This document shows positions 1,377 to 27,521 of a stretch of 64,000 bases of DNA, one piece after another (the first letter of the stretch is position 1; each line of letters begins with the position of its first letter). Both the position numbers and the translations under genes were made by a program. Where the stretch lies: assembly GCA_965113315.1 (NCBI GenBank), contig OZ220370.1, one strand, 5' to 3'. Below the pieces are notes generated by a model, which was not told the DNA's origin, did not search any database, and saw only the letters and a list, made by a program, of their open reading frames with translations. The DNA is from Podarcis vaucheri. Taxonomy: Eukaryota.

Positions 1377-2301
1377 CCCAACTAAATACAAATTGATCAG
1401 GGCACGAAAAACAGAATGCTGGCTCTCCCTTAACCATGGTTCGGTAGATAATCAAGGGCAGTCAGTGGGATCACACACTCTATGGAGAAAAATTCCACCT
1501 TCCTGCAGTGACATGAAAAACAATGCATTCCTACACATGCCTATGCAAAAGTAAGTCTCAGTGAGTCCATTGTGGCTTACCCTCAAGGTTAAATATGCAT
1601 GGGATTGAAGCTTAATGGATAGCTCATACCAATGTCAGCTCTGGTTAAAGGCTAAATCAGGCTCCCTCTTAACTAGGTTTTGTTAACCATGTTCTTGTTT
1701 ACAAACCCTGGTTAAGCAAGTCAGAGGTAGCTGTAACATAAAAGATATTCCAAGTTTGTTTTGATGCCATGTGGATGACATTATACAAGATTTAACACCT
1801 GTACATGTATTTATCTTGGATGACAACACTTTGGTCATTAAAAAAAAAATCAATAAAGTGTGTTTTAAAAAAGGAGAGAGGGGGAAGAGGTTGCTAACCC
1901 ATGATTCTCTAGATGTTGCAGGACTACTCCCACAGTCACACTGGCTAGGGCTGGTGGGAACTGTAGTCCAAAAACCTGGAGTGCCAAATCTTAGTCACCC
2001 CTGTTGAAAGCCATTAATTGAAGATGGTGCTGATGTCAGTACAGACATTAATTAGGTAGGGGGAAGGGGGGGGGAGTCTGCTCTAGAAAGAGAGCCCGCA
2101 ATTATGGTTGGCATAAAACTTATGTGGCCACGAGGAAATTCATGGTCTGTGGACACCATCCATTTGTGTATAACGGTAATAAACTTCATAGTCTGCTTTT
2201 AGGGTCACATCAGTGGAAGGCACTGAAATTCAAGTATTTAATTAATTATTTTTAAAAAAGTAATTATAAATAGGAAATTTTAAAAGTGTCCAAACACTTA
2301 C

Positions 2302-2437
2302 TTGTAACATGAACTCCATGCTTATTCTGTTTTCTATGAGTCTCATGACTAGGTGGGCTTTGCACTGGAACATAGTGTAGTACTCCCATGATAATGTGTG
2401 AGGATGCTTTATAGAAAAATGCAGGTGTGATGCAGGG
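2302..2437 (-). CDS. TAF2: TAF2 coding exon 11
   Basis: PASHLHFSIKHPHTLSWEYYTMFQCKAHLVMRLIENRISMEFMLQ; CAG acceptor, GTAAG donor; phases consistent. Confidence 0.95.
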
Positions 2438-2905
2438 CTGGAAAACAAAAATCAAGATCATTGCAGGAATATTTAATTTTGCATTTTAAGGGAAAGTCCC
2501 AAATACAGCAGAAAGTTCAAAAGTAAAAATTCAAAGAGTCAGACAGGATTTTCCTAATCCAGCAATTGAAAACTATTAATTAAAACTCTGATTATATTAA
2601 GAACAGGGGCTCAAGAAGTACACTTACAAATTGTACTCAGTGTTTTTTTAAAAATATTCTCAGGTAAACTTTGGGTAAAACTAAAACTATCTGGGTAAAT
2701 TGCAAACATCGGCAGTTTGCTTCTGCCTGTAACAATCTATGAACAGTTCAGACAGGAGCACAGAAGGGAGGAAAGAGGAGAAATAATGACTATCCTATAT
2801 TCTCTTTCATGGAGTACTTTAAAAAAAGATATGAGTAGACTCTTTTGGCTAAGGAAGACAGCAGTAATTACAATGGGGTGGTATTCAATTACGTTTACTC
2901 AGAAG

Positions 2906-3258
2906 AAAGGTAAAGGTAAAAGGGACCCCTGACCATTAGGTCCAGTCGTGGCCAACTCTGGGGTTGCGGCGCTCATCTCGCTTTATTGGCCGAGGGAGCC
3001 AACGTACAGCTTCCGGGTCATGTGGCCAGCATGACTAAGCCGCTTCTGGCGAACCAGAGCAGCGCACGGAAACACCGTTTACCTTCCCGCTGGAGCAGTA
3101 CCTATTTATCTACTTGCAGTATGACATGCTTTCGAACTGCTAGGTTGGCAGGAGCAGGGACCAAGCAACAGGAGCTCACCCTGTCGCGGGGATTCGAATC
3201 ACCGACCTTCTGATCAGAAAGTCCTAGGCTCTGTGGTTTAACCCACCCGCATCCCTCC
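2906..3258 (-). mobile_element. Sauria SINE
   Basis: (AAAGGT)n tail on the plus strand followed by GGGACCCCTGACCATTAGGTCCAG body; near-identical to five other copies in the window. Confidence 0.85.
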
Positions 3259-4096
3259 TTACTCAGCGTAGAAACAATTAAATTAATGGACCTATCTTAG
3301 AGACATTCATTAATATCAATGGGTCTACTCTGAATAGCATGTGTTACTCCTCTCCTTTGAGTCACCCAAAGCAGTCATCTCGCTGCTGGACCTTAGCCAT
3401 CACTGGGCACCTCCAAACTGCCTTGCCAGCAGTGCTTCAAGCAGCAAACCAGTGGTAAGGAGCCAGTGAAAAGGAACTTACTGGAGAAGAGGTATTTAAG
3501 CAGCCTTTTGCTTTCAATTATAGCCTCTTTAATAAAAACTATTCTCGGACACTTGAATTAGGCAACTCAAGTTGAACAACTGTTCCCTTTCATCTCATAT
3601 TGCTTATAAATCCATGTTGCCATCCCTATATTACCAATTTAAGACTTTGAATGTAGTATTTCAGCACCATTTAATGAGCAATAAAGTCACCTCCCTCCAT
3701 ATGGCTACACAGAATGAGGTTCGTCAGCCATATGCTCTAATTTATTTATTTTTAAACTGCAGTTTGTTCAAAGCTGATGTGCATCAGTCATTAGAAGGAC
3801 TCTAGTGCTTGTAAAAATAGCAGAATGTGTGTTTTAAAGTGATTTTCACACCTGTAGCAAAATAGTTTCCCTTTCCTTGGAAAGGTTTTTAATCTACTTA
3901 GCATATATTTTGTTAATATACTTCCATTCTGTAATTCAAACAAGGCAAATGTTTACCAAGGATGTCCTTTATGGGACCATTAGGTAGCTGAGGTAATGAA
4001 GCCTTTGGCCAAATGTCTCATTACTCACCTGAAGAGAGAGAGAGTGTGTGTGTGTTTGTGTGTGTATTATTGGCCCTATAAATCTACTAAACATAC

Positions 4097-4182
4097 TTGT
4101 CCTTTTCTTTTCCTCCACCAAAGATTGGATGAAGTAAGACTCCACCGGTCTTCAGTTCATACACCACTATTTTGTCCAGTTC
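4097..4182 (-). CDS. TAF2: TAF2 coding exon 10
   Basis: ELDKIVVYELKTGGVLLHPIFGGGKEKD; CAG/GTATG boundaries. Confidence 0.95.
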
Positions 4183-4950
4183 CTGAAATGCAAATAATAA
4201 TAACAATAATATTGCAACGGTGTATTTGGCTACAAAGAGAAGACAAGCTGTACACGGTCTTGTTGAAGCATATTAAAATTATGAGCATATTCAATTTGGT
4301 TTCCATCATTTCCCCTCCTTACAAATGTACCCATCAGGGGAATACTGTGCATTCAGATCACAAACCCTTCCCTTTTAAACTCAACTTCCACTACTTCACA
4401 TCAAAGATAAGCAGGGACAAACATTATCTGCAAAGAGCAGAACTGCAAACCACTGTGGTTTTTCAAGTGCATTTCAGATAATCCTTGGGCAGCTTGGGCA
4501 CTACTATTAGTTGCCCCTGCAATGTGTGATTGCCAGAGAGAGCTGAATGCATCATAAGACAAACACACACACACACACAAACATACACACACACTTTTCT
4601 ACACAACCCTTGAAAAGAGAGGCATTTTGCCTTTCTTTCCCTCTGCTGCTTGGTACCTTACTCTCAGTGAACAGGGTGAACAGTTACTGAAAAAAATGGA
4701 TGTGTTTTTTTTTTTTGGGGGGGGGAGATTTGTAAAAAACACAGTGCAATATTCTGATGACAACATATGAGGCTGTTTAAAAGGGGAAATGAAGACAGGG
4801 TGCAGGGTTAGAAAATTAAATCAAGATCACTTGAAAGCTTTTTATGGCAAAATCCATCACACTTGTTGATAGATATAATAAAGACACGCAAGGAAAAGAG
4901 GCAGATGGTCTGGACTAATTCATAAACCATGCACTTGGCAGAAGGGTGTA

Positions 4951-5275
4951 AAGGTAAAGGTAAGGGGACCCCTGACCATTAGGTCCAGTAGTGGCCAACT
5001 CTGGGGTTGCCGGCGTACAGCTTCCGGGTCATGTGGCCAGCATGACTAAGCCGCTTCTGGCGAACCAGAGCAGCGCACGGAAAAGCCGTTTACGTTCCCA
5101 CCGGAGCGGTACCTATTTATCTACTGGCACTTTGATGTGCTTTCGAACTGCTAGGTGGGCAGGAGCAGGGACCGAGCAACAGGAGCTCACCCCGTCGCGG
5201 GGATTCGAACTGCCGACCTTCTGATTGGCAAGTCCTAGGCTCTGTGGTTTAACCCACGGTGCCACCTGCATCCCC
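4951..5275 (-). mobile_element. Sauria SINE with 14-bp TSD
   Basis: TSD GGCAGAAGGGTGTA at 4937-4950 and 5276-5289. Confidence 0.9.
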
Positions 5276-5659
5276 GGCAGAAGGGTGTAGAACCCCCTAA
5301 AACAGAGGGCTAATTCTCACTAAAGTAGAAAACCAGTATCTGGGCTCTTCTTTCCTCAGACAGCAAGTCAGGGCTCACATGACTGGATGCTCATCTGCAG
5401 GGGTGGGGAAAGAACTGCTGGGTCCTACCTGAATGGCTGTTCTGTGTCACTACACCAGAGCATCACTGAGGGGGGTTTAGTGCCACCCTGTGGCCTGCAA
5501 GGGTGGGCAATTACCTTTAACCCGAGGCTGGCATGGTGGATTGCTAACACACTTCCAGAGAGAGAGAGAGAAACCTGTTCTGTTAATGCTTATGTAGCCA
5601 ACCCAATATAACATAATGCTTCCTCAAACAGAGGAACAAATTGAGGTTGAATCCTGTTT

Positions 5660-6430
5660 TTGGGGGACAGGAGGCGGGCAGGTGTGGAGAACTCCCTGGT
5701 CCTGAATGGGGTAACTGTGCCCCTGAAGGACCAGGTGCGCAGCCTGGGAGTCATTTTGGACTCACAGCAGTCAATGGAGGCACAGGTCAATTCTGTGTCC
5801 AGGGCGGCTGTCTACCAGCTCCACCTGGTACCCAGGCTGAGACCCTACCTGCCCGCAGACTGTCTTGCCAGAGTGGTACATGCTCTAGTTATCTGCTGCT
5901 TGGACTACTGCAATACGCTCTACGTGGGGCTACCTTCGAAGGTGACCCAGAAATGACAACTAATCCAGAATGCGGCAGCTAGACTGGTGAGTAGGAGCGG
6001 CCATAAGAACACACAACACTGGTCTTGAAAGACCTACATTGGCTCCCAGTATGTTTCCGAGCACAATTCAAAGTGTTGGTGCTGACCTTGAAAGCCTTAA
6101 ACAGTCTCGGTCCAGTATACCTGAAGGAGCGTCTCCACCCCCATCATTCTGCCTGGACACTGAGGTCCAGCGCTGAGGGCCTTCTGGTGGTTCCCTCAGG
6201 GAACCTGGCAGAGGGCCTTCTCAGTAGTGGCGCCCACCCTGTGGAACGCCCCCCCCCCATCAGATGTCAAAGAAATAAACAACTATCTGACGTTTAGAAG
6301 ACATCTGAAGGTAGCCCTGTTTAATGACGGATGTTTTAATGTATTTCTAATCTTATGTTGGAAGCCGCCTAGAGTGGCCAGGGAAACCCAGCCAGATGGG
6401 GAGGCTATAATTAATAAATTATTATTAATA
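5660..6430 (+). mobile_element. L2 LINE 3' fragment
   Basis: RT C-terminal peptides VRSLGVILDSQ...LDYCN and LHWLPV...FKVLVLT; 3' tail with (TTA)n. Confidence 0.85.
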
Positions 6431-6657
6431 ATAATGATGATGTCACCCAAAGCAGCTTCACTGGTCAGTTACCCAGGGAACACTGTTTTGCCAAATATTT
6501 CTAGAACTGCACACATAGGTATTGTGTAATCTCCCACTTAATTGTGACAGCTTCATCCTAAAATGCATGAATGGAAAGGATAGCTCCATTCGTGCATCCC
6601 CTTGTGTATCTGTGTAAAAGGATAAAGATGCTTTCAAAATCCATCGGGGTTCATTAC

Positions 6658-6757
6658 CTCCTTGATCCAGTGCCGATACTCATTTACACCAAAGGTTTTC
6701 TTCATCCAGAGGCCATAAATATAGCCAGAGATTCCTTTCAACACCCACTCATCTGAC
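6658..6757 (-). CDS. TAF2: TAF2 coding exon 9
   Basis: SDEWVLKGISGYIYGLWMKKTFGVNEYRHWIKE; CAG/GTAAT. Confidence 0.95.
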
Positions 6758-7186
6758 CTGTAAGCGAAGAAGCAATGCAAGAAAAAGCCCTCTTGATTTA
6801 CAGAATCTCCGTGCTGAATGCACTCCTAGTGAAAATACTTTAAAAGCTAACAACTCTAACCATCTAAATAAATAAAGGACTAATGAACCCAGAACAGATG
6901 TATATATCCTGGCAGTGAAAGAAAGCCTTAAGTGTAATTAAAATCTAGGCAACTACATCTTTTGGTATTTTTATTTAAAATATTCTCTAGTATACAGAAA
7001 CTTAAAAATCTATGTAAGTAAATAGACATTAAGAGCTTGTAGGTTATCTTGCACATTTAAGAAACCCCAAATGTGCTATGATTGCTGTAATAGCTATAGA
7101 ATTTATCTGCATTTATGCTTTATAATGATTCTCATACTCAGAGCCAAAATTTGATGTGGGAGTTATCTATTTTAAGATGTACTCAC

Positions 7187-7300
7187 CAAGACATTCTAGA
7201 TATGAAACAGCCAAAAAACTGCTGGGCCAGAGCTTGAGCCAAACATCTCCTGGTCAGCGGGGTCTCATCTATTATCATTGCACTGTGCAAAAGGTTTGTG
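7187..7300 (-). CDS. TAF2: TAF2 coding exon 8
   Basis: TNLLHSAMIIDETPLTRRCLAQALAQQFFGCFISRMSW; TAG/GTGAG. Confidence 0.95.
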
Positions 7301-7635
7301 CTAAATGAAAAACACAAACAAGCATATGCACAACGGTGGCAAAGAAAATCTTCAGGAGAAACAAAACCCTCCACCCCAGTTTAATCAAGTAAACATGAAC
7401 AAATAATAGCAGAATTTTAACAAGAGAAGTATAAAACAGCTTTCTTAAGTCTTATACGGGTCAGCTTCACATGCAACATGAAGCCAAACAATCACTAAGT
7501 GTGAACCAACAGGTGTGTGTACTCAGAGTAAAAATCACAGTTGCATCCCTCCTTTGCCAAATGCACTTTGGACTGTGGTCGCAAAATTAAAATTGGGAAC
7601 ATTTTAAAACACCCTATGTTTCTAAAACTGGCTGT

Positions 7636-7860
7636 TAGTGGCACCCACCCTGTGGAACGCCCTCCCATCAGATGTCAAAGAGAAAACTTTTAGAAAACAT
7701 CTGAAGGCAGCCCTGTTCAGGGAAGCTTTTAATGTTTACTAGGCTATTGTATTTTAATATTCAGCTGGAAGCTGCCCAGAGTGGCTGGGGAAACCCAGCC
7801 AGATGGGCGGGTTATAAATAATAAATTGTTGTTGTTGTTACTATTATTATTGTTATTACT
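7636..7860 (+). mobile_element. L2 LINE 3' end
   Basis: Similar to 6227-6430; (TTG/TTA)n tail. Confidence 0.75.
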
Positions 7861-8213
7861 ATGCATTGGATTGAAGTCAATCTGGCAACTCTTATCTCAT
7901 CAGTCGATTCTATGGCAACCTTTGGCATCATTTTATAAGCTGGAAACTGAACTGAAACGTGGAGCTAGCTCAAAGGCATCCCTTGCAAATACGCAACTGA
8001 GTTTCAGCCTAAAGCCCAGGTCCCAGTATAATGCTATCCTTGGCCTTATGAACTTAAATGATGGCACTGAGTTTCCTTTAAAAATACAAAACAGCAAAAA
8101 ACCTCTAGTGATTTGGACTGAAGTATCTCTCTACCAGCATGAGATACGATGAAGTGTGATGGATATCTGTGCATTTCTCAAATCACTTCTTTTTAGATGG
8201 GTTAGTTCTAAGT

Positions 8214-8588
8214 AAAGGTAAAGGGTAAGGTGAAGGTAAAGGGACCCCTGACCATTAGGTCCAGTCACGGACGACTCTGGGGTTGCAGCACTCATCTCGC
8301 TTTATTGGCCGAGGGAGCTGTCGTTTGTCTGCATACAGCTTCCAAGTCATGTAGCCAGCATGAATAAGCTGCTTCTGGCGAACCAGAGCAGCGCACGGAA
8401 ATGCCATTTACCTTCCCACCGGAGCGGTACCTATTTACTTGCACTTTGACGTGCTTTTGAACTGCTATGTGGGCAGGAGCAGGGACCAAGCAATGGGAGC
8501 TCACCCCGTCGCAGGGATTCAAACTGCCAACCTTCTGATTAGCAAGCCCTGGGCTCTGTGGTTTAACCCACAGCGCCACCCGCGTCCC
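8214..8588 (-). mobile_element. Sauria SINE
   Basis: Same family; near-perfect TSD GTTAGTT(C/A)TAAGTA; ends about 20 nt from the TAF2 exon 7 donor. Confidence 0.88.
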
Positions 8589-8608
8589 AGTTAGTTATAA
8601 GTACTTAC

Positions 8609-8793
8609 CTAAAAATGCTCATGGAAGCGTAAGCAGCTACTTCAACGTAGGCCTCGTCAACGAAAACCGTCTTGAAACAGGAGTAAGGATAGCGGCACGT
8701 AAGTATCTCTTCATAGAATTCAAATACTTCATGGAGGTAAGATGTGGTGTGTTTGAGCAGTGGGAGAAGCTGGGGTAAACAGAAATGAGTCAC
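8609..8793 (-). CDS. TAF2: TAF2 coding exon 7
   Basis: [61 protein letters not shown]; TAG/GTAAG. Confidence 0.95.
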
Positions 8794-9440
8794 CTACAAC
8801 AAGAACAAGGGAGAAAACTTTTAAAAAAAACAAAACCAAAGTCAAGTTAGCAAATAGCTAAAAGTGAACATTAGAAAACGCTGCCAATGGAAAATATAAA
8901 GATTAGCAAGTTTGACCCTGAGGTCACCATCACTGCATGCATATAGCTTAGAGATGCAGAAGATGAGGTGGTGAACTGGCTATGCAGCTTTGCTAGTCCT
9001 CCACAGCTTTCCAGAGATCCAGGAAAACAGTTAACGTGAGGCACGGCCAGAGGCTATGTACAACAGCCTATCTGCTGTATGAAGTGTCATAAAGTAGCAA
9101 GCTTTCAAGTGGGTGTTTATGGTACTTCCAGCCATTGGAATCGACTGCAAGTTACAACAAGAATTGGTACTTCCCAAAGATAAGGCAACAGACTTACGAC
9201 AACACACAAAACTTTTATAAAGCAATAGTCAGGGGGAAAAGTGATATAAATAGAGCGATAAATTTAGATTCCGACTTTAGGATTCTGGCTGTTGAGAACT
9301 TATTTTAGATATTGTTCTATCCCTGGGCATTCAGGATAGGGAACATGATTTCTTAAGAACTAAGAAATATAACAGGACAAATAAAAAAAGCACTGAAAAA
9401 TCCTATATGACCAATATAGCAAGAGGAAAACCCTAATCAT

Positions 9441-9790
9441 AGGGATGTGGGTGGCGCTGTGGGTTAAACCACAGAGCCTAGGACTTGCTGATCAGAAGGT
9501 CGGCGGTTCAAATCTCCACGACGGGGTGAGCTCCCGTTGCTCGGTCCCTGCTCCTGCCAACCTAGCAGTTCGAAAGCATGCCAGTGCAAGTAGATAAATA
9601 GGTACCACTCCGGTGGGAAGGTAAACAGCGTTTCCGTGCGCTGTTCTGGTTCGCCAGAAGCGGCTTAGTCATGCTGGCCACGTGACCCGGAAGCTGAATG
9701 CCAGCTCCCTCGGCCAATAAAGCGAGATGAGCGCCGCAACCCCAGAGTCAGCCACGACTGAACCTAATGGTCAGGGGTCCCTTTACCTTT
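9441..9790 (+). mobile_element. Sauria SINE
   Basis: Same family in the opposite orientation, ending CCCTTTACCTTT. Confidence 0.88.
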
Positions 9791-9873
9791 AAAACCCTTT
9801 AGAACCTCAGACCAGGACAAATCACGTGGAATAGGAGAAGCGCCACACAGAGGCTGCCTATGAAAAGAATTAC

Positions 9874-10105
9874 CTCATGCATGTAGGGATCAACAAGAAT
9901 TTCAAATGGTCCGATGGCCAAGGAGATGTTCGATGCTGCAGTTGGAATTGTCAGCATATAATGGAAGGTCTTTTTTCTCATATCATGAGTATACACCGTT
10001 TCCACCAGGTCTCCATTTGAGACAGCCACCATTGTGGCATCCACAGTATATTCCAGTTTCCATGTGCATAGTTCGGAGTATGAATCAACACAAGGAAACC
10101 AAAAC
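9874..10105 (-). CDS. TAF2: TAF2 coding exon 6
   Basis: [33 protein letters not shown]...[13 protein letters not shown]; CAG/GTAAT. Confidence 0.95.
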
Positions 10106-10255
10106 CTGGAGAGAAAGTGAAGTCATTAAAAACCATAATCATCTTCCCAATCCAAGACAAATGTTGCTGTACTTGATGTGTAGGCATCTGGGGCCTTAGC
10201 TTTACCAAAACAGTACAATCCTGCAAGCAGCTGACCCTTCCCAAATCTTTGATAA

Positions 10256-11112
10256 TGGGGATGGCTAACACCCCAGAGGACAGGATCACACTTCAAAACG
10301 ACCTTGACAGATTAGAGAACTGGGCCAAAACAAACAAGATGAATTTTAACAGGGAGAAATGTAAAGTATTGCACTTGGGCGAAAAAAATGAGAGGCACAA
10401 ATACAAGATGGGTGACATCTGGCTTGAGAGCAGTACATGTGAAAAGGATCTAGGAGTCTTGGTTGACCACAAACTTGACATGAGCCAACAGTGTGACGCG
10501 GCAGCTAAAAAAGCCAATGCAATTCTGGGCTGCATCAATAGGAGTATAGCATCTAGATCAAGGGAAGTAATAGTGCCACTGTATTCTGCTCTGGTCAGAC
10601 CTCACTTGGAGTACTGTGTCCAGTTCTGGGCACCACAGTTCAAGAAGGACACTGACAAACTGGAATGTGTCCAGAGGAGGGCAACCAAAATGGTCAAAGG
10701 CCTGGAAACAATGCCTTATGAGGAACGGCTAAGGGAGCTGGGCATGTTTAGCCTGGAGAAGAGGAGGTTAAGGGGTGATATGATAGCCATGTTCAAATAT
10801 ATAAAAGGATGTCACATAGAGGAGGGAGAAAGGTTGTTTTCTGCTGCTCCAGAGAAGTGGACACGGAGCAATGGATCCAAACTACAAGAAAGAAGATTCC
10901 ACCTAAACATTAGGAAGAACTTCCTGACAGTAAGAGCTGTTCGACAGTGGAATTTGCTGCCAAGGAGTGTGGTGGAGTCTCCTTCTTTGGAGGTCTTTAA
11001 GCAGAGGCTTGACAACCATATGTCAGGAGTGCTCTGATGGTGTTTCCTGCTTGGCAGGGGGTTGAACTCGATGGCCCTTGTGGTCTCTTCCAACTCTATG
11101 ATTCTATGATTC
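10256..11112 (+). mobile_element. Young 5'-truncated CR1 LINE
   Basis: Uninterrupted RT C-terminal frame (LQNDLDRLENWA...KCKVLHLG...RPHLEYCVQFWAP) and (ATTCTATG)n tail. Confidence 0.93.
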
Positions 11113-12108
11113 TCCATTCTGTCAATGCATAAACATAAAGAACTACAAAAAGCTAGCCAGCTTAGGACTCCCATGAGGCTGCTACTCCACGTTAATAAGT
11201 TCAGTTCTACAATACTGAAAGACTGACTAGTCTGGGGAGGCTTCGAAAGTTCTACTTCAGAAAAGTACACTGCAAGGCACACTTGAAATATGTTTGCACC
11301 TTTGCAAGAGAGCTCCCAGGGTCCAACAGTGATGTCTTCAGTCCTTTGTTTTTTGTTCTTCTTGTTGTTGATACAGGAATGTACAGATTAATTCCTCCAC
11401 CCACCCAAAAAATAACAGGGGTGGGGATGGGGAATGTATTCCAGTTCTCTTGAAGTGGTATAACATATAAAAAATGGAAAGTTAAGCAGGTAAAATGCTA
11501 AGATTTTTCCTTTTCTATTCGGACAGACTGCCAGTCAAAGCTTAGGGGCTTTCTCATTCGTTTTAACAATGATAAATCAGACTCTGATAGCTCTGGAAAT
11601 TAAATATACATTATTCAAAAGAGAAGAAGGGGAGGGTAATGAAGCACCACAGGTCAACTGACCCTATATTTACTGAGCAGCACGTAAAATATCTATTTTA
11701 CTGAATGACCATCAATTGAAAAGCTGCCAATTGGCAATGAGTGCACACATGGGTTATTTGTTTTCTTCCATGTAAGGAAAACACCATGTCTGAATGGTCT
11801 TAAAATATTCTGAAATGACCGTAAAGCAAAATAGGACCTCATTTCCAACTCTCACAACACTCTTCAATTTCAAGGCCCGTGGGAAATGGGAGCATAAGAC
11901 TGTGCAACTCTCTTTTTTAAAAATAATTTTTATTCATTTTCCAAACAATTTTATACAGTCAACAAATATTTTAACACTCATTCTTCATTTTTTGACTTCA
12001 ATTTTTGACTTCTCTGTCAATCTTTTGTAAAATTTCTATTTTGTTAATGCATTTCAAAACATAATATTGCCTTTTAGAACTCCTTTTCCTCTTACTCTCT
12101 TTTTTGCA

Positions 12109-12250
12109 GTTACAGATAGGTAGCCGTGTTGGTCTGCCATAGTCAAAATAAAAAATTCCTTCCAGTAGCACCTTAAAGACCAACTAAGTTAGTTCTTGGT
12201 ATGAGCTTTCGTGTGCATGCACACTTCTTCAGATACCCAGATAGCAGATA
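12109..12250 (-). mobile_element. Penelope-like element terminal fragment
   Basis: Flanked by a 13-bp direct repeat TCTCTTTTTTGCA (12096-12108, 12251-12263); contains a hammerhead ribozyme, a hallmark of PLE pseudo-LTRs. Confidence 0.75.
12198..12237 (-). ncRNA. Minimal type I hammerhead ribozyme
   Basis: GGUAU-CUGAAGA-A-GUGUG-CAUG-CACAC-GAAA-GC-UC-AUACC: CUGANGA and GAAA core, 5-bp stems I and II, palindromic AGCU stem III. Confidence 0.85.
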
Positions 12251-12685
12251 TCTCTTTTTTGCACTATTTCTTACTATCTCACAGAGTCTCTTCAAAACCA
12301 ACAAGCGTTGTCTGTACATCACATATGTTTTTCAGATATTCTGTAAATCTCCCCCAGTCCTCGATAAATTTTTGGTCTTTCTGATATCGAATCTTCCCAG
12401 TCAATTTATCCAATTCTGCATATTCAGTCAATTTCCTTCTCCATTCTTCCACTGCTGGAATTTATTCCTGCTTCCATCTTTGGGCCAGAAGTATCCTTGC
12501 AGCAGTCACTGCGTATTGAAACAGTTTACAGTCTCTCTTATTAATTTCAATTCCTACCATTCCTAATAGGAAGGCCTCTGGTTTTTTAACAAACGTATAT
12601 TTCAACATCTTTTTCAATTCATTGTATATCATTTCCCAGAAGCCTTTCACCCTTTTACACTCCCACAAGACTCTGCAACTCTCAC

Positions 12686-12827
12686 CTTGTAGAATTTTGA
12701 TACCCGCAAGAGAAGACATGGGCTCCTCTTTCTGCTAAGCTTCCTTCCACGTTGGGTACCACAAAATGAAGGCCTCCTTTTGGCTGGTCCAGAGAAAAGT
12801 TGATATGTACCTTCAAGACTTTTAATT
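12686..12827 (-). CDS. TAF2: TAF2 coding exon 5
   Basis: LKVLKVHINFSLDQPKGGLHFVVPNVEGSLAERGAHVFSCGYQNST; CAG/GTGAG. Confidence 0.95.
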
Positions 12828-13305
12828 CTGCAGCAGTAAAAGAACAACCACGTAATAAAATATGTATTAATCTGGTATTTCTGGGAGAAACTTGGCAAAC
12901 CCACCATTAACTATTCATTAACTTGCAAAACCACTTTGTACTCAGAACTTCAATGAACTAAGCAAGAGAAAAAGATGAAAGAATGAAGGTGAGATCTTTG
13001 ATGATGACCCAGGACTCTCAAAGCGAAACAGAACTTTCTATTATAAAACACATTTTACTGAGAATACGCGCAGGAGATTATTTTCTGTACACAGAAGTTA
13101 GTCTGTGAGGCTTGAAGTAACTCTTAAGAACTTGCCATAATTCACATAATTAAACAGCTTGCCTGATCTACGCCTCAAAATCAAAAGCGCTGCACCAGCA
13201 TTGCAGGGCCATTGAAGCCCTGCCAAAGCGCAGCACGCCTGGAAAACTATTCTAGATTGCTAGCAAGTCTGTAGCACTTTCATTTTAAGGGTTTCTGGTC
13301 TTTAC

Positions 13306-13424
13306 CATCGACATGCTTCCAAAGCTCTGACGGCACCTTGATGCACAGCTCTCCATTTCCAGCATCTGGGTCCACAGCACTGACTGCAGCAGCATACGCA
13401 TTGGAAAAGTAGTTGAGATTTCTC
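13306..13424 (-). CDS. TAF2: TAF2 coding exon 4
   Basis: RNLNYFSNAYAAAVSAVDPDAGNGELCIKVPSELWKHVD; CAG/GTAAA. Confidence 0.95.
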
Positions 13425-14045
13425 CTGCAACACAAAGGACTCAGAGTTCAAATTCAAAAAAAGGATTCGGGGTCAAGGGACTTCACATGCTGCAAAAAAG
13501 CAGATAAAAAATGCCCACAACAGAAGTGCTTAAAATTGTCACCTCTAACAGTAACCACTTAGAAATGCCAACTCAACACTCATGGGCAGATTGTACACCC
13601 TCTTTGAAATGTCACAATAAAAGCTTTAAACTTAACTGAGAAAGTCATTTGATAAGCTTGAGACAATTGCAGTGAAAATCTTGTCCATTGCTCCACTTAT
13701 CTTGACTTCATGTGGCAAGGACACACAGAGCTTGGCCTGCCCTACACAATGGAACTGGAGACTTAAGCACGTATGGAGAGAGGGAATCTCCAAAATATAT
13801 CAGTCCCAGGCCACAAAAGACGTCGAAAGGGTAGGATCCAGCACCATCAATTGGACCAGGAAACTAAATCAGCAGCCAGCACGATTGCCAGAAAGTAGGC
13901 TGAATATTATTCTGCCTCCTCACATTTGACAAAATAATGGTCTGAATAACTATAGCAGGGGTCGGCAAACTACGGCCCCTGGGGTCCTAAATCCGGCCCA
14001 TCCGGCCATTTAAGAACCTGCCATGAAGCCGAGACTCCCGACGAT

Positions 14046-14195
14046 ATCTACTTGCACTTTGACATGTTTTCAAACTGCTAGTTTGGCAGGAGCAGGGACC
14101 GAGCAACGGGAGCTCACCCCGCCATGGGGATTCGAACCGCCAACCTTCTGATCGGCGAGCCCCAGGCTATGTGGTTCAGACCACAGCGCCACCCG
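14046..14195 (-). mobile_element. Partial Sauria SINE next to a hAT-like end (about 13956-14045)
   Basis: Matches the 5' half of the other Sauria copies. Confidence 0.7.
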
Positions 14196-15494
14196 CTGTC
14201 TACTATAGACTGCCTTATATTACTGAAACCATTCTTATTGTGGTGCTGTTCTTTTCCTAAACGGATGATAATATACAACGTGCGCGCTGTATGTTCAGTT
14301 TTAACTTTTTGCATATTACATTTCAGGCCGCAAACGCTTGGAAACTCAGAGTTAAAAAAGCAACCTTCCAAAACCAAGCCACAACGATCCCATTCATTAC
14401 CGCCAACTCATCTACATCCTGTTGCACTCTAATGGTGGTGATTTCACAGTCAATTGAGCTCCTTGGCTGGGTGGCTTTGCACCATACCCTTAACAGTCTT
14501 TTAAAGGCTGATTTAATGAAGAACAGAGAATACCTTTCTTAGTTGGAGTCCTACAGCAAGTTCTTCACAGAACTAGTTCTACAAATATGTAGCATTGCTT
14601 TCTTTCGTCAATGAGCTCAAGTTCATCTCCTAAGAGATACTTTTCAAAACTAGCAATATCATGCCTGAAATGAGTCAATAAAATTCAGCGACTAAAAGGA
14701 GGGAATAAAATTGCCCTTTCTTTCCCTGTTTGACTTAAAGATTTATTAGACGTCTCAATATAGCTTACTTTTTTACAATATGCCCAACATTATAACTATC
14801 CACAAGGTTCAAACACAAAAAAGAAGACACAATACTTTCTTTCCCACACCAACTCATCTTCCACAGAAAAAGGAGGGTTTTGTACAATGAAAGGGTTTGA
14901 GCCAAATTAAAACCTCACAAAAATCAGACATGACCTCATTTCAAAGCTTTCCTTCCACCTCATTCCCTACCCACCACATACTGAGTAAACTTCATTTTGA
15001 ATTTTTGAAATCTAACATGGAAAACTCAAGAGGCTAAACTGATTATTCATGAATAGCCCAGAGATTATTCATGCATAGCCCAGAGGATGTAAACACCTCA
15101 GTCCTGAAGGACAAACTTCAAGCCTGAAAGAATTTTTGACCATTTATTAAGAAAACAAGTTAGCTCAGTTTTTAGCCTTTGATAATACTATGGCTGGTGC
15201 ACAAGTGGTGACTTGCATGTATAAAGAAGCAATTCCCGCTCAAACATCACAGGCAGAACTTTCACTACCATCTCACGCCTTCATAAAACATGGTACGCTT
15301 CCATGGAGTCAATTCATACACTCAGAAAGGAGTCATTGAGTGAGATGATCAACAACAATCAATGTTCATGGTGTGCAAATTAGCCCTAGCTTTTCAATTT
15401 TGCTTTTTTAGTTGTTGAAATCTATCTGAATCTGAAGGCTTGGAGCATGTTACTACCAGCTAAGTAGCAAGAGGAACAACAAGAGGATACCCAC

Positions 15495-16203
15495 TACAAT
15501 TTTCGAACAGCTTAGTTCCCGAACAACTCAGTACCCATACACTGCAAACTCGGAAGTGTTCCGGTTTGACTCAGAAGCCGAACATGCTCCTGAGCTTCCG
15601 TTTTTACTGTTGTGCAGCTCATTTGAGTCCCCCGCATAGTAATTAAGGTTTTTTCATCTTGTTTTACCCTTGCGCAGCAAATTTAAGTCCCCCGCATTGT
15701 AATAAAGGTTTTTTTTCATCCCATTTGTATCCTTGAGCAGCTAATTTAAGTCCTCCCCCCCCATCATAATTAAAGCCTTCCGTTTCTGATTGCAGAGTTC
15801 TGAGGCGATATTTGGTCTTTTGTTCTTGCTATTTTTTGCGTTTTTTGTGTGTGGCTTTTTCATTTTTGTGACTGTGGCCTGTTAATTGATTGATTGTGTG
15901 ACTGCAAAAAGGGATAAAAGCCCCCCATCCAAACAATAACTATCATCAGTGCAGGTAAGAATTTTTTTAAATTTTTTTTTGTCATCTACAATACAGTCTT
16001 ATTTATAGTACAGAACATTGATTACTGCTTTCATTTTATGGATCAATGATCTTGTTAGATAGTAAAATTCATGTTCAATTGCTGTTTTAGGGGTTGTTTT
16101 TAAAAGTCTGGAACAGATTAATCCATTTTGCATTACTTTCTATGGGAAAGTGCGCCTTGGTTTGGGAACACTTTGTTTTTGGAACAGACTTCCGGTACCA
16201 CTA
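15495..16203. mobile_element. Degenerate Tc1/mariner (Tigger-like) non-autonomous element with an internal ~58-bp tandem repeat
   Basis: Right end ...TTCCGGTACCACTATA resembles the TIR of the MITE family below; three degenerate repeat units at 15610-15780. Left boundary uncertain. Confidence 0.45.
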
Positions 16204-17441
16204 TATTTCAAGTCAGAACTACCACATGCTAACTTATCACTTTACACTTTACACTTGATATTTTACTGCCACTTTGGGGAGGTCCTTTTGAAGCTCCTTG
16301 CAATCCTTTTTGTTTTATTTTGTTTTAACCATCTTTAACAAATCGTATGCTAGGCCAGTAAATGCAGTCTATCTGTACACTTAATTCTTTCCAGAATCAG
16401 ACGCAAGCCCAGCAAAAATAAACCATCCGTAAAGCGATTCTTAATTTCTGCCTTGCCCTAATGGCATTTTCATATTTTAAATCTTTTAGTGATTATCACA
16501 CATAATAAGCACCAGAAATAATAAACAACACAAGTCTCAACTTCAATATGAATTTCAGGGATATTCAAATCAACTTACTTTAAAGTAAATATGATACAGG
16601 AATATTCTGCCTCTAATTATCACCAAGGGACAGCTTTCCAAAATGTCTGTATCTAGAGGGAACTTGTGGTTAGATACTAAATACCAGTGGGTTCACAGAC
16701 AGAAATGGGCCATATTTTATGTAATGAGAGGTAGACTCCTTGGAACAGAGGCTAGAATTTCACAGAAACCATTATTTAGTTTGTTCTCTTTTTCACATGT
16801 GCATTGGTCCTGTTCAAATATGTGACTCACTGTAGAGGAATCTATTTAGAGGACCATTATGGTGGAGGGGGTGTCTTATGGGTATGCTTACTTTCCATAC
16901 AAATGGTAGCAGCTGAGAAGTGGAGATCTGGATTGACATCCTTTCACTATATATTCATTTGTATTTAACACTAAAGCTCCGTGGCACTTACTGATACTGA
17001 AGGTCCAAGTCTCAACTTAAAACCAGTGCAAGCCTGTTAGAAGCTTCTTGAATACTGCTGAAAATGGAGTTTGTTAGGCACATGTAGTCTTTTATTAAAA
17101 ATAAAAATGTATCAAAAATAAAGATGTACTTTGACCAGGGGTACTGTTTGCTAAGAGAGACCCTTGCCTTGTTGTGACAAAACAAAAAACCTTTCTCTGG
17201 GTTGTACATCTGTAATAGAATTATTTGGCAAGATGCATAGTTAATCTAGACTATTCCAGCAAACTATTATTTCAGCTAGTTAAACTAGTTGGGGCCTCTT
17301 TCACCACACCCTTAATATATAAAGATGCTACATAGAAGAAATCTGTTTTAGGCATCTTACTCAAAAATACACGTATTTGTGAATTGTGGGTCTAAGAGTT
17401 GGTTGTTTCCTGTTGGCTCAGTTATGCAACGTTACTATGTA

Positions 17442-17667
17442 CAGTGGTACCTCGGGTTAAGTACTTAATTTGTTCCGGAGGTCCATTCTTAACCTGAAAC
17501 TGTTCTTAACCTGAAGCACCACTTCAGCTAATAGGGCCTCCCGCTGCCGCCGTACCACCGGAGCACGATTTCTGTTCTCATCCTGAAGCAAAGTTCTTAA
17601 CCTGAAGCACTATTTCTGGGTTAGCGGAGTCTGTAACCTGAAGCGTATGTAACCCGAGGTACCACTG
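17442..17667 (+). mobile_element. Tc1/mariner-type MITE
   Basis: TIR CAGTGGTACCTCGGGTTA / TAACCCGAGGTACCACTG, TA TSD. Confidence 0.9.
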
Positions 17668-17694
17668 TATCCAGAATGGCAATTCTTGCTATTG

Positions 17695-17836
17695 CAAACC
17701 AGGATAGTTGGTAGACCATGAGACTCTTAATCTCGGTTGTGGGTTCATGCCCCATGTTGGGCCAAAGATTCCTGGATTGTAGGGGGTTGAACTAAATGAT
17801 CCTGGTGGTCCATTCCAACTCCACAGTTCTATGATT
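17695..17836 (+). mobile_element. tRNA-derived SINE with CR1-like tail
   Basis: tRNA-like head (AGTTGGTAGA...GACTCTTAATCTC...GTGGGTTC) then CR1 3' end ...TTCCAACT...TTCTATGATT. Confidence 0.65.
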
Positions 17837-18804
17837 TGGTGGGAAAGCACTGTCTTCCTCCACAAAGACATGTCTTAAATAAATCCAGCAAAGCTTTATT
17901 TGTACCACCCAGAGTCTCTGCTTGCACGTGCATCCTTTTTATACAAGAGGGTATGGTGTTGTTGGGAGTCAGGCAGGCAGCAGGATCCTAAAGTGTAAGA
18001 ATGTGCCATCATTTCCCAACAATGTCCACTAAAAGAAATACTTAGCATCATTGTAACATTTTCCCTAAATAGTCAAAGCACTTCACATACTTTATCTCAA
18101 TAATCTTTCCAGCAATCCTGAAAGACAGGCCAATGCTATCGTTCTCATCAGTGCTATTTTTCTGGAAAATGAGGTGCTGGAACTCACTATGAACACCTCC
18201 TTCATTCTCTCAGAATGGCAATGGCGCACAGTTGAGAGGTGCCAGAACTGAGTTCCAGTGAGTTTCTCCTGAAAGCCCTAGTTCTCATATTTCAGAGTGA
18301 GGCTGAAAATCTGAAACATGCTTCATTGTAACCATTCCATTGAAATCCCATGTCATATCATTTTGGGTCAGTATGGTTAGGATCAGGCCATGAGACAGTA
18401 GGATCTGGCCGCTAGGTTTAATTCAAACGTCCTCCAAACCAATGGCCCCTTTGACAGCTGGGTAAGGCTGCCCAATTGTGACATTATCAAGATGTCAAGT
18501 GCAGCATTTTCTTTTGCCTGCGAATTGTCTGAAAGTAAGCAATTCAGGCCACTGTGAGAATAGGATGCTAGACTAGATGGATTTTTGGCTTGATCCCGGA
18601 CTCTTCGTATGTTTTATATTATCTCAAAAACTTCAGATTTGTGAAATACTTCCCATCATTACTTCACTTTTGACACCTATTAAATGTGTTGATCAATCTT
18701 GTGCTTCAAGAACACTCATGACTCAAAGCCCACTTCATACCCTATCCAAAAAAGATACTGATCACTATTCCAGAGACGGTAGCAACTATGCACTATTTAC
18801 TTAC

Positions 18805-18965
18805 TGTTTTGACTCATGGTGACAAACCTCCAGCGTGGGGTCATTATAAATAAAAGCTGCTTCCAGATCGTTGACTCTCACTCTGTATATCCTACATTGT
18901 TTACTGTTCAGCTTGATCCTATTCAGATTTGCAACTGTGGGAAATATTGTCAGCTCCACGTAACC
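18805..18965 (-). CDS. TAF2: TAF2 coding exon 3
   Basis: GYVELTIFPTVANLNRIKLNSKQCRIYRVRVNDLEAAFIYNDPTLEVCHHESK; CAG/GTAAG. Confidence 0.95.
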
Positions 18966-21719
18966 CTGCACAGATTTAAAAGAACAACATCAGGGACACA
19001 CATATATTTTCTTCTTAACCTGCAGAAGTTTACACTCCAAAGCAATTTAGCTTTATAAATACTATTATAGCTTCAAAATGAGTTTCCTTTTGCATCAACT
19101 GAAAGGTTTAAAAAGTGCACCAGCTCTCACCGGGTTGCTTCTCATACTGCTTGTTAAGGACACACTCGGTGTCAGAAGTAAGAAAGTAACAAGAGGAGTG
19201 CAACGTTCCCTTCAATCAATGAAGAAAGTCCTAGGTACAGCTAGGCTGACCAGATGCAAATGAGGACAGTGCTCTTACATCTTTAGCAGCTGTGCAGAAG
19301 GAGGAATTTCACCAGGTGCAGCTTGTCACTGTTGCAACTATTAAAGCAGAGGTGGGAAGCCTGTAGTCTTCCAGATGTCCTTGGACTCTAGCCCCCATCA
19401 GTCCCAGCTAGCATAGCCAATGCTCAGGGAAGATGGGAGCTACAATGCAACATCTGAAATCACCAGCACCCTATCCCTATATTAAAGGTACAGGAGCCCT
19501 GTTTGTGTGTTTGTTTTTTGGCCACCCTACATCCAGCATGAGGTGCCATGATTCTCCTTCACAGGAGAACTCTACTTCACAGAAACTAGGGGGCACATTC
19601 CTACACTTTTCAAGACTTGAAAATGCTGCTTGTCCTGAGACACAACCAGTCCTTTTGGTCTCTGGTTCTCCCCTTCCTATTTGTTCACACTTTTATCACC
19701 AAGCTCACAGCAGCATTTAGGAGAGCGTCCCGCTTTTCCTCACAACTACCCTGCGAGTTAGGTGCCTGGCCCAACGTCATGGAGCGAGTTTCATAACTGA
19801 GCACTAAAATTTTGTCCGTGTTCCCGGAGAAGCTACTCAGACACTAAACCCAACCACAGCTCCTTCACAGTAAATGTGAAGGTATAGCAACAAACAACTG
19901 GAGGCAGGATCACAATCCCATCAAAGCAAGTATGCCTTCTTCGCTTTGTCCTAAAAAACAAAACCCCACCCTAACATAACTATTCAGTTCTCCCCCGTGA
20001 AACCAAGAAACAAGAGACACAACTTGGTTGGTGGCACTCATTCATCTGCAGCCCGGGGGTAAGCACATAAAAACAGAGCATGTGGAATATATTACGGGTT
20101 CCTGGGAACACAAAAGCTCATGAAAAATGAAAGAATTTAGCACTGAAATCCATCAATCTCCATCAACACAAGGATGTTGCGCTAGAACCTCCAAACAAGA
20201 ATTCAGTCATTCATGTTTTATTTGTTTGATAACTCCTTTCAGGAGACAGGAATTTTCTTCCCTCTATTTGTAAACATCGGGATTGACTACTGCAATGTGC
20301 TCTTTGGGACTGCTCATAAACGGCTTTCAGCACACAGCAACCTACCCTGTCAAGTGTGGAACAGTACTTATACGTTGATATCGTTCCACATTTTTTATGT
20401 AAGTATCAATAAAAACAGACCTATATAAAAAGGTGTGGAACAGTATCATCATATAAAACCTGAGTAAAACTGCATCCTTTGCCTTTTAGCTTTTCAGTGT
20501 GATGGCACTGACTTTTAACGCTATTTATAAACTACCGTATCTACAATTTGTAGATGAAGTGGGATCATCTCCCTGCCCCCCCCCCATTAAAGAATTATGC
20601 AATGGCTTTGATGTTTCATATCTCAGGAAACACTTTTCCTATTAAGAGCCAATCTGGCTATTAAGATCAAACACAAAAATCCTGTCATAAACCAGCCATC
20701 TCAATATCAATTATACCAGAAAGTGGAACAAGGTTTTCTCCATAATGGTTTTGGAGTTGTGGAATTCCCTTTCAACAGAAACATACCTGAGCCTCCCTGT
20801 GGCAGCTTTTGGAAAAGACCACAATATTTTCTCTTTTAAGTGGGTATTGCATGTTAAGTGAATTTTATTATTTTCTTTTTATGATGTGTTTTGAAGATTT
20901 TATTTTCAGAAATAAATTTTGCTGTTTATTAACCTGAGCCCATCTTAAACAAATAAATAACCAATGGGTAAATGCAAAATTTATCTGGCTTTAATATTTT
21001 AAATATTTGAACGGTTTATGCCTAACCTATCCCTGAGGTCTTGGCGGTGAAGCTGATCCTTCACACTTCTTAGGTGTGGCTTTTTTGGCTCCATAAACAA
21101 TTCCCTGCTGTTGTGATTGCAATCATTTTAACAGGTTCCAGTTCAGGGTAAACTCTCACTAATGTCAATTGAGGTAGCATGAAACTTTTGAGCACTTCTG
21201 CAAGCAAGCTGTAAAATTGTCAGTCAGTGGCAGTTGCAGGCCAGCTTAATGGTAAAGAACAAAAGGATAGGATAGGCAGCTAAAGAAAAGGATAAAACTC
21301 CTCTAGAATAACCTCTCTGGCCATTGGTATTTTGTAAATATTACAGCAGAAATGTGAGGTTGTTTGTTGTCACAAAATGGGATGCATGGCATACATAGCA
21401 TGAAGAAAACACAGTTAACCAACTATAAAAGTGAATCCCTTAATAGCCAGAAGAGTAGAGGCTTATGACGTAGACTTTCACTACGTTAATTAAATAGGAA
21501 CATGGGAAGCTGGCTTATACCAGGTCACGCTATTTGTCCATCTAGTTCAGGACTGCCTGGTCCAACTAGCAGTGGCTTTCTGGGGTCTTGGGCAGAAAAT
21601 ATTTCCCATCACCTGGTACCTGGTTCTTTTTGTTGGAGATTCCAGGGACTGAGCCTAGGACCTCCTATACACAAAACATGTACTCTTCCTTTGAGCTCTA
21701 TAGTCCCTTCCCCTCAATA

Positions 21720-21945
21720 CAGTGGTACCTTGGGTTAAGAACTTAATTCGTTTTGGAGGTCCATTCTTAACCTGAAACTGTTCTTAACCTGAGGTACCAC
21801 TTTAGCTAATGGGGCCTCCCGCTGCCGCTGTGCCCCCACCGCACGATTTCTGCTCTTATCCTGAAGCAAAGTTCTTAACCTGAGGTACTATTTCTGGGTT
21901 TGCGGAGTCTGTGACCTGAAGCGTCTGTAACCCGAGGTACCACTG
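21720..21945 (+). mobile_element. Tc1/mariner-type MITE
   Basis: Same TIRs and TA TSD; begins at +10 of TAF2 intron 2. Confidence 0.9.
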
Positions 21946-21954: not shown

Positions 21955-22009
21955 AACAACAGATTTTCTCTGGAAATTTATGTTGTTGATACAGACCACC
22001 TGGTGGGTT
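21955..22009 (-). CDS. TAF2: TAF2 coding exon 2
   Basis: THQVVCINNINFQRKSVV; GTAAG donor. The acceptor is non-canonical (AC) if the conserved YKLTHQ junction is kept. Confidence 0.9.
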
Positions 22010-23172
22010 GTGCTGGGGAAAGGAAGAAAAAATTCAAAATAAAGATCTTGATGTGTATAAGCTTGCAGAGAACTAGAAAATAAGTTATCAGACCATCTGT
22101 CTGCCTGCACTCATGTGTCACATAACAGATTTTAGACACAGGCCATCCTGGGCACTTCATCATAAAGAATTATTGCACCCTCCATAAGTGGCCAAGTATC
22201 AAGCTGGTATCAAGTAAACAACGCCTATATTGTATGTGTGAGTATGCACCACATTTAACACTGCAACAAACAGAGAAGATTCATTCTATATATACTGAGA
22301 AAATATTATCTGCATTAATAGAAAACAATTTATAACATCAGTTGTGGGATCAGAAATATCAGTAAATTTTCTAATATTCCATTATATACTCAAGCAGCTA
22401 GACATGTACAACTGAAGCTTCTCTCCTGGGTGGGATTCTAGTTAAAACACATCTACCCCAGCAATTCCAACCTAAAGAGGCCAACTACAATCATGCAATA
22501 GTTTTAGCACCCTTTTTCCTCTATAGTTCTCAGCTTGTTTGGCACTTCACATCACAATTAGCCATCACCAGAAACAAATGTAGGTAATTTCCAGTATTTT
22601 CTGTATCAAAAGTACAGTATTCTGAAGTCAATGTAATAGCATAACATGAGAAGTTAAGCTGAGATAAAAAAATATATTCTTAAAGAGCCTCAAACCAATA
22701 GAAATAATTGACAGAGGCTGAGGCAACCCAGGCCGATGGAAGACGTATTTCATTGTTGTTGTTGTTGTTGTTGTTACATAAAAATATTTCAGTTCAACTT
22801 GCTTGTGGATCATGCATGGTACTTTCATGTTCCAAGCAAATTTTGATGCCTAAGGAACTAAGGTCACAAGTCTAATTCTATGTACCTGAAAGTAGGCCTC
22901 ACTGAATTCAACAAGACTTACCGTACTTTCAAGTTGAAATAGTTAGGAGTGCACTGTACATATTTACATGTATCAGGGGAAAACCAAAAATGCAGTTTCC
23001 CACATTTTAATGGAACTGATTTATATTACCAAACTAGTTGTTAAAATGTAACTTCAATTTCTCTCCAGGTTTTTTAAACAATCTGCAGCTTTCTGGACTC
23101 CAAAGGCCTATTGCTTCAGTTTACAAACATCAACCTGTGGTCATAAGAAAAGAAACAGTAGCGGATACTTAT

Positions 23173-23228
23173 AATTTATAAGGTCTTGGGCTCTCAAACC
23201 CCTTGTCTCCTTTCTTCCTGTTCATCAT
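23173..23228 (-). CDS. TAF2: TAF2 coding exon 1
   Basis: ATG ATG AAC AGG AAG... = MMNRKKGDKGFESPRPYK(L), followed by an ATAAGT (AT) donor. Candidate AG acceptors lie just upstream (about 23240-23248), suggesting a non-coding first exon. Confidence 0.9.
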
Positions 23229-24399
23229 AAATAGTACTACTGAACCTTGATGAAAATCAAATACACATCACAAGCCTCATTAGCAGTCTTTTCAAAGGTA
23301 ACTTTAATTCTTCCTTTCTTGGCTGATTTCTTCCCATTAAAGATCTTTCACCAGAAAATTTTAGAATAGTCCAAAGAAATGTCCAAAGAGGCAACATTGC
23401 CCATAAAGCATTTTCGGAGTGTGAATACTTCAGATTTCGGGAGACCTAACCTACTAATACTGACCTCTTAAATTAGGGAGAATTATATATGTATTAAACT
23501 TAGTATCTGTTGTGCAACTTACTGACATTTAGTAAGGTAAGGGGATGCTTCCTAGAAAGAGAACTTCTCCTACCCCAGGTTAAAAGATGACAACTTCTGA
23601 ATCCTCTAAAGACCTACCAAAGCAAACTAGATACATCTCTCTTTTTTGTGTAGGCATTTAGCTATTTACAACTTTTTTTTAAAAGAGAGATCTCTTGTCT
23701 TGTAGTCTATTTACTAAAGAAGCGACAGCAGTTGTCAGTGATTCCTGGCTAACTTGATAGACGCACTTTTAGAACAAAAACTGGTTACTGACTAGGTTTC
23801 TATCTGGGAGAAGGAATCCCGGGGTAATGCAGTATGCAACCTTCCCAATTTGCGGGGGCAGCATCTGGACCTAGGAGCAGCCGAGGCTGCTGCCGAGCTG
23901 CCCCCAAACTATCCTATGGGTATGTAGTTACCCTTCCTTGAGCCAGGGCTGGGTACAGCCTTTCTCTACAAAGGAGATGCCAACAAGGGGACTCCTGATC
24001 TGCGAGGTCGCATCTGGTTTAAGCAGGTGCGTTGGCAGCTGTCGGGGCTTCTGGTCAGGTCTAGGGGTATCTAGCCAGCATGGAGCCGGCTCCCTTTTGG
24101 AGCGTGTCTAGGAAGAGGGCGCTTTTCCTGTGGGTCTCCCAGGAGGATTCCCGTTTCACGGCGGGGATGTGTTGCTAGAAATGAGGTGGGCATGAGGGCT
24201 ACTGAAGCTCCGACTAGGAATTTGGGGCGAGGGGGGAGAGCTTGTTCTGAGGCGAGGAGCTGCCGCAACTTCAACTCTCGAGGGGCGATTCTTCACGGGC
24301 GCGGCTGCCTAGTTGAGGGGACCGTCGCTAGTCCTCATGAAAAGCGAGTTGCTTTAGGGAGGCGGTAGGTGTCCTGTGAGGAAGAACGACGTCCGAGGG

Positions 24400-27032: not shown

Positions 27033-27141
27033 TTATGAAACGGGTCTTCTAGAATTATAAACTTTAAGTCCATTCTGCACTGAAGAACGAGCATATTTTG
27101 TCAGCAATGTACCAATCGTTTGCTTCTCTGAACATAAGTCC
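27033..27141 (-). CDS. DSCC1: DSCC1 coding exon 9 (last, includes TAA)
   Basis: DLCSEKQTIGTLLTKYARSSVQNGLKVYNSRRPVS*; CAG acceptor. Confidence 0.95.
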
Positions 27142-27521
27142 CTGAAAAAGAGAATACAAGCACTATTAATGCAACTTCAAAGACCACACAGAAGGACCAT
27201 TTGCTTCAGTTACTTTTAAAACACTCCAAATCAAATTATGGATTTATCCCTAGTATTACAGTGCATCATATCAAATGCCACACACTCTGGATTGAAGAAC
27301 AGCAGTGGAAACAAAGAACAAAGTAACAGGGAAAGGTGCAGAAGGAAATGAGAAAGTTCGGTTGTGAACAGCTTTGAAAGCAATGAGACTTAAGTTTATG
27401 CTGCAAAAAGTGAAGTCATTCCATTAAAGGATAGGAAGATGTTCATGGTGAATTGTGCCCTGTGAAACAAAAAATGAGGTATGTTTGTGATTCTGTAACA
27501 TTCAGTATTTTTATTACTTAC

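Follow-up and report, generated by a model that had tools for sequence, protein, structure and literature searches.

The window analyzed here is a 64,000-nt stretch of the Podarcis vaucheri genome (GCA_965113315.1, contig OZ220370.1). Its minus strand carries TAF2, of which coding exons 1 to 11 were placed (Table 1). Coding exon 1 is identical at 18 of 18 residues to the mammalian-type TAF2 protein P0022 and ends in TAT AAA TT, and exon 2 opens with the A that completes the Leu codon. Between them, the first coding intron runs from ATAAGTATCC (23172) to TTCCTTTCCCCAGCAC (22010), with AT and AC at its termini, and the other nine TAF2 introns within the window are GT-AG. When the AT-AC junction was used, exons 1 to 11 encoded 462 amino acids with 448 ungapped identities to bovine NP_001178070.1; the end of exon 11 chosen by the script is possibly 4 nt off, without effect on the AT-AC finding. 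For exon 6, the best full-length named match was from a gecko (98%), and a monitor lizard reached 96%, which likely points to a squamate source.

Table 1. Features of the TAF2 locus in the window, and metagenome loci with GT-AG or GC-AG forms of the orthologous intron
Feature	Position	Strand	Remarks
TAF2 coding exons 1-11	23225 to about 2299	-	gene continues past the left end of the window
TAF2 coding exon 1, coding part	23173..23225	-	53 nt; MNRKK...PYK and TT of the Leu codon
AT-AC intron, probably U2-type	22010..23172	-	1,163 nt; phase 2, in the Leu codon
5' splice site, A+1 T A A G T A T C C	23163..23172	-	motif match
GT at +5, possible cryptic donor, unproductive	23167..23168	-	in-frame TAA, codon 19
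Polypyrimidine tract, ending in the upstream CAG	22013..22034	-	82% C/T at -25 to -4
3' splice site AC	22010..22011	-	competing AG 3 nt upstream, 22014-22013
TAF2 coding exon 2	21955..22009	-	55 nt
TAF2 coding exons 3-11	2299..18965	-	flanking introns in the window all GT-AG
Orthologous intron shifted by 2 nt	L014:9712-10022; L020; L027:234-305; L028; L050:386-470; L032; L072; L031; L062		L072 donor tentative
Orthologous intron, unshifted GT-AG	L004:5337-5400; L006:1621-1696; L017:2834-2908; L024:1541-1619		
Orthologous intron, unshifted, probable GC-AG	L059		

A further in-frame ATG lies at 23228. Within 23240-24900 (minus strand), a GC-rich, promoter-like stretch is situated about 1.3 kb ahead of the TAF2 start codon, AG sites near 23246 and 23240 hint at a 5' UTR intron, and an upstream ORF of 10 codons starts at 24581.

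To define the junction, we scanned 30,000 donor/acceptor pairs across all of coding exon 1, the first 100 nt and the last 150 nt of the intron, and most of exon 2; 2,676 of these pairs were open and in frame. Identity to bovine TAF2 reached 36 of 36 residues (score 193) only with AT-AC at 23172/22010 or with TA-CA, a 1-nt shift of these boundaries that gives an identical mRNA and was rejected because TA-CA is unrecognised as a splice pair. AT-AC was therefore the only pair of recognised termini in the scan to reach 36/36, in agreement with the claim of a sequence-only reading of this DNA that AT-AC is needed to keep the PYKL-THQ junction. No GT-AG pair among the 30,000 restored the conserved TAF2 N-terminus; the best of the eight open GT-AG/GC-AG pairs scored 137 versus 193 with an altered length, and all eight were rejected as the junction. 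Two further statements of the sequence-only reading, that the GT at +5 brings in an in-frame TAA and that the AG 3 nt upstream of the AC changes the protein, were both borne out by translation. The +5 GT donor (23168) gave PYKL-stop, and intron retention likewise leads to a stop at codon 19. The upstream AG (22013) gave PYKFTTHQ, with an extra residue that is absent from every protein keeping exon 1, and an AT-AG shift (23175/22013) kept the length, but lowered the identity to 34/36 and had a poor donor. Given the base composition of the intron, ATRAGT...AC would fall by chance on a protein-fixed junction with a probability of about 5e-5. The presence of AT-AC ends at the first coding intron of TAF2 is thus confirmed as correct and real.

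Among 195 database proteins, 99 show the start of exon 2; in the other 96 this region is lacking or the protein is an unrelated cluster member. The junction was intact with no extra residue in 85 of the 99 (82 by pattern and three, with AY[KR]LA, by eye), many of them predictions, so that their support for the junction is indirect. Exon 1 followed by one extra residue was found in none of the 99 homologous proteins, many of which are gene models rather than cDNA. Thirteen carry foreign upstream sequence followed by Thr-x-His-Gln, and one is otherwise truncated. These 13 proteins resemble gene models in which the AT-AC intron was avoided and its final AC read as Thr. Two of the 13 are fused to the gene upstream of TAF2 (27033-36355, minus strand). 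The exons of this upstream gene correspond to the N-terminal portion of PF09724-bearing fusion models in databases, and we take the gene to be DSCC1. In P0011, P0013, P0014, P0046, P0053, and P0132, the upstream PF09724 gene is fused to TAF2 and TAF2 exon 1 is skipped, with the join made at the AG 3 nt before the AC in P0011 and P0013. Such PF09724-TAF2 fusions are likely annotation artefacts caused by the AT-AC intron; gene finders that refuse AT-AC break TAF2 at its first coding intron.

Splice signals were evaluated by a simple match count against consensus sequences, rather than with Sheth's weight matrix, using the nine other TAF2 introns in the window as an internal control. Between +2 and +8, G+5 included, the AT-AC donor agreed with the U1/U6 consensus throughout (7 of 7), a score reached by just one of the nine GT-AG introns; its exonic positions -3 to -1 matched the U1-complement consensus at 0 of 3. 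Against U12 donor sequences, the matches were 4/9 for the donor and 4/8 for RTATCCTT. The earlier description of this donor as the U2 consensus apart from A+1, and not a U12 donor, is therefore upheld. The C/T fraction at -25 to -4 (0.82) was tied for the highest among the 10 TAF2 introns in the window, and neither TCCTTRAC nor CCTTRAY occurs anywhere in the 1,163-nt intron, in agreement with the pyrimidine tract and missing U12 branch site noted before. The nearest U2-like YTRAY lies at -82, and branch points are degenerate in vertebrates. According to passages of PMC8283771, G+5, U+6, and A+7 (with U+8) make a perfect U6 site that offsets weak exonic pairing, and the G-G pair of the intron termini can be replaced only by A-C.

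The closest match to the U12 branch motif in the intron tail is TTCCTTTCC (22018-22026, minus strand), which agrees at 7 of 9 positions but has no branch A and lies inside the pyrimidine tract, only about 9 nt from the intron end. TTCCTTTCC is one base off TTCCTTTAC, the branch site listed for the U12 intron of human TAF2, and is not conserved among the invertebrate introns. U12 ancestry could have left it as a relic, but it is probably due to chance.

The TAF2 AT-AC intron is already known and published for human and Drosophila. A passage of Sheth et al. (2006) names the U2-type 'AT-AC II' intron class in human and Drosophila TAF2 (PMC1557818), and intron 1 of human TAF2 served de Wolf et al. 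(2021) as a major AT-AC control for RT-PCR, listed by them as AT_AC, U2 at chr8:119831732-119832481 (PMC8280824). In the same source, retention of human intron 1 was 0.128 in control cells and 0.154 and 0.137 at 24 and 48 h of CENATAC depletion (padj 0.97), and 0.187 in healthy versus 0.174 in patient cells. Retention of the U12 GT-AG intron of human TAF2 rose from 0.049 to 0.128 on CENATAC depletion (padj 6e-8) and from 0.014 to 0.245 in ZRSR2 mutants, and CENATAC loss hit 92% of A-type minor introns (PMC8280824). The insensitivity of human intron 1 to CENATAC loss excludes the A-type minor pathway only indirectly.

The window intron resembles the AT-AC II introns of human and D. melanogaster TAF2 in being the first coding intron of the same gene, with AT-AC ends and assignment to the major class, and its protein junction, PYKL-THQ, is identical to that of mammals. 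We infer positional orthology to human intron 1 from the 'intron 1' label, from the protein junction common to both, and from an exon-1 primer whose end falls on the start codon of MNRKK. The two differ in length (750 nt in human, 1,163 nt in the window), and mammalian TAF2 has a 10-residue extension that is absent from the window protein, which starts at MNRKK. If the window has an extra 5' UTR intron, as it may, its AT-AC intron is perhaps not intron 1 by count, and it may be intron 2 of the P. vaucheri transcript. The U2-type AT-AC introns of SCN4A and SCN5A share the AT-AC ends, the major-type donor, and G at +5, and their host genes also carry U12 introns, as does human TAF2, whose U12 GT-AG intron lies further downstream (PMC1557818, PMC2831892); the major spliceosome was shown experimentally for SCN4A and SCN5A, whereas the corresponding evidence for TAF2 is the insensitivity to CENATAC loss. 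To U12-type (minor) AT-AC introns, the likeness is confined to the terminal dinucleotides: the window intron has neither the RTATCCTT donor nor TCCTTRAC, and has a polypyrimidine tract. The window thereby extends the published TAF2 oddity to one more vertebrate.

A metagenome search with 24 aligned TAF2 proteins of invertebrates gave 75 loci, of which 39 cover the junction and 35 do not show it; a motif match in L022 was dropped as spurious. The orthologous intron is in phase 2, in a Leu codon, 4 nt before His. Ten of the 39 junction-covering loci, all invertebrate and on distant branches, had AT...AC with both ends visible, and one more showed the AC end only. GT-AG was found at the same position in four loci, with one probable GC-AG and one AG end only there; GT-AG or GC-AG ends shifted 2 nt downstream in seven (donor tentative in L072); a shifted AG only in two; and an ambiguous ACAG, donor not found, in two. 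The other 11 had no intron at the junction and represent intronless genes or transcripts. Donors could not be placed in L011, L031, L039, L040, L062, and L065. The comparison with orthologues proposed earlier thus recovered AT-AC at the identical position and phase in 10 invertebrate loci, and this sharing across species points to orthology of the window's first coding intron with the TAF2 AT-AC intron.

Scoring of the 11 AT-AC introns (the 10 invertebrate loci and the window) gave ATRAGT at +1 to +6 in all 11 and AT at +7/+8 in 10. None of the 11 has a U12 donor, the match to RTATCCTT being 3-4 of 8, and an AG lies 3 nt upstream of the AC in four. TRAGTAT at +2 to +8 was present in 10 of 11 AT-AC introns versus none of seven GT-AG orthologues, four in place and three shifted (one per shifted arthropod-like group); Fisher's test gave p = 2.5e-4, a value that overstates the contrast, the lineages being non-independent.

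The AT-AC boundaries, the major-type signals, and the deep conservation of this intron, with AT-AC ends and the extended donor AT(A/G)AGTAT recurring at the TAF2 junction in distant animals, are direct observations. We therefore regard the first coding intron of TAF2 as a U2-type AT-AC intron, likely the orthologue of the human/Drosophila 'AT-AC II' intron and likely excised by the major spliceosome, with a probability of roughly 0.93; this agrees with the sequence-only reading and is supported by sequence signals, conservation, and publications. For P. vaucheri, we infer use of the major spliceosome as follows. U1 and then U6 would hold the donor through the full match at +2 to +8, which would compensate for A at +1 and the absent exonic pairing, and the strong pyrimidine tract would recruit U2AF. 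During step 2, pairing of A+1 with C-1 would replace the usual G-G pair of the termini and lead to selection of the AC over the AG 3 nt upstream.

It is highly improbable that this is instead a degenerate U12-type AT-AC intron removed by the minor spliceosome, or a twintron-like arrangement with GTATCC at +5 as the minor donor. The AT-AC termini, the six positions at which +5 GTATCC matches a U12 donor, and the 7/9 match of TTCCTTTCC to the branch motif near the 3' end would fit such an origin, but RTATCCTT is matched at only 3-4 of 8 positions in every AT-AC intron scored, TTCCTTTCC lacks the branch A and sits only about 9 nt from the end, the product of the +5 GT contains an in-frame stop, and CENATAC loss, although it hit 92% of A-type minor introns, left the human intron unaffected (PMC8280824). 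The U12-likeness that had been attributed to +5 GTATCC was not supported by comparison: GTAT at +5 to +8 is present in nine of the 10 orthologous AT-AC introns while +9/+10 vary, and GTATCC recurs in only one of the 10 (L063), making 2 of 11 with the window. Since GTAT at +5 belongs to a perfect U6 site (PMC8283771), it is explained without a minor-type cryptic donor. An assembly error, with a true intron that is GT-AG, or AT-AG through the upstream AG (YKFTTHQ), is next to negligible. An AG does lie 3 nt from the intron end, and GT-AG versions of this intron occur in some invertebrates; however, the assembly would have to be wrong independently at A+1 and at C-1 to arrive at exactly the published human state, and no protein among the 99 keeps exon 1 with an extra residue. 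Such an error is very unlikely because 10 unrelated invertebrate metagenome loci carry the same AT...AC ends at the junction.

A further proposal is compatible with the major-type explanation and adds to it: AT-AC may be kept as a regulatory bottleneck, in which slow splicing, with retention or use of the +5 GT leading to nonsense-mediated decay, would tune the level of TAF2. Consistent with this, retention of human intron 1 (0.13-0.19) exceeds that of the TAF2 U12 intron in control cells (0.05; PMC8280824), the retained intron yields the stop at codon 19, and AT-AC has been maintained over very long times. Against it, AT-AC is dispensable, because in several lineages the intron has become GT-AG or is missing from the junction, and a 'trapped' intron, as described in passages of PMC2831892, accounts for persistence without selection. 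We consider this addition unlikely.

The distribution of intron forms was examined on a protein tree built with FastTree from 66 partial sequences, with a provisional root and group names taken from best matches only; L040 was omitted, as its junction sequence is the same as that of L039. AT-AC was found in a deep-branching pair, in the vertebrate clade (with the window beside Bos), in two arthropod-like clades, and in insects. In-place G-type forms occurred at three points of the tree: in a mite-like clade, at L059/L065, and at L024, which is nested among AT-AC loci. Shifted forms occurred at four: beside wasps, beside insects, as the sister of an AT-AC trio, and within an annelid-like clade. 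The junction is Leu-Ala in every shifted case; L014 retains ACAG at the intron end, and L030 shows the unshifted AC|AG state. In the unshifted GT-AG forms and in L059, the extended donor is lost. It is possible that the shifted GT/GC-AG forms reflect recurrent sliding of the intron out of the AT-AC state.

Lin et al. (2010) propose that U2-type AT-AC introns arose from U12 AT-AC introns and are trapped, since escape would require a simultaneous change at both ends (PMC2831892). For TAF2, we think it moderately probable that the AT-AC intron is ancient, belongs to the major spliceosome, predates the split of the main animal lineages, and is not trapped, with several independent escapes to GT-AG by two routes. 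On the first route, both terminal bases would be exchanged in place; on the second, the intron would slide by 2 nt where exon 2 begins with AG (AC|AG to ACAG|). After either escape, the extended U1/U6 donor would decay. If this is true, a single intron position provides a natural experiment on the persistence, conversion, and sliding of U2-type AT-AC introns, and the in-place switches, 2-nt slides, and later donor relaxation make the ideas of trapping and compensation testable at one site.

A full-text search, with most subscription papers outside its reach, found no literature on a switch or slide of the TAF2 intron. TAF2 gave no match in the searched passages of the twintron paper, Lin et al. 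(2010), and Iwata and Gotoh (2011), in three supplementary files of Parada et al. (2014), whose main text was searched for AT-AC only, or in the searched passages of Olthof et al. (2024), from which AT-AC sliding is also absent. Repeated escape to GT-AG, partly by the 2-nt slide and with donor relaxation, may be the sole new part of the present observations.

Elsewhere around the gene, an interspersed-repeat-like element at about 21690-21945 (minus strand), possibly resembling a squamate SINE, begins no more than about 10 nt from the donor of intron 2, and a similar stretch lies near 17460-17660. The window also contains an assembly gap of 158 N at 60622-60779, far from the AT-AC intron.
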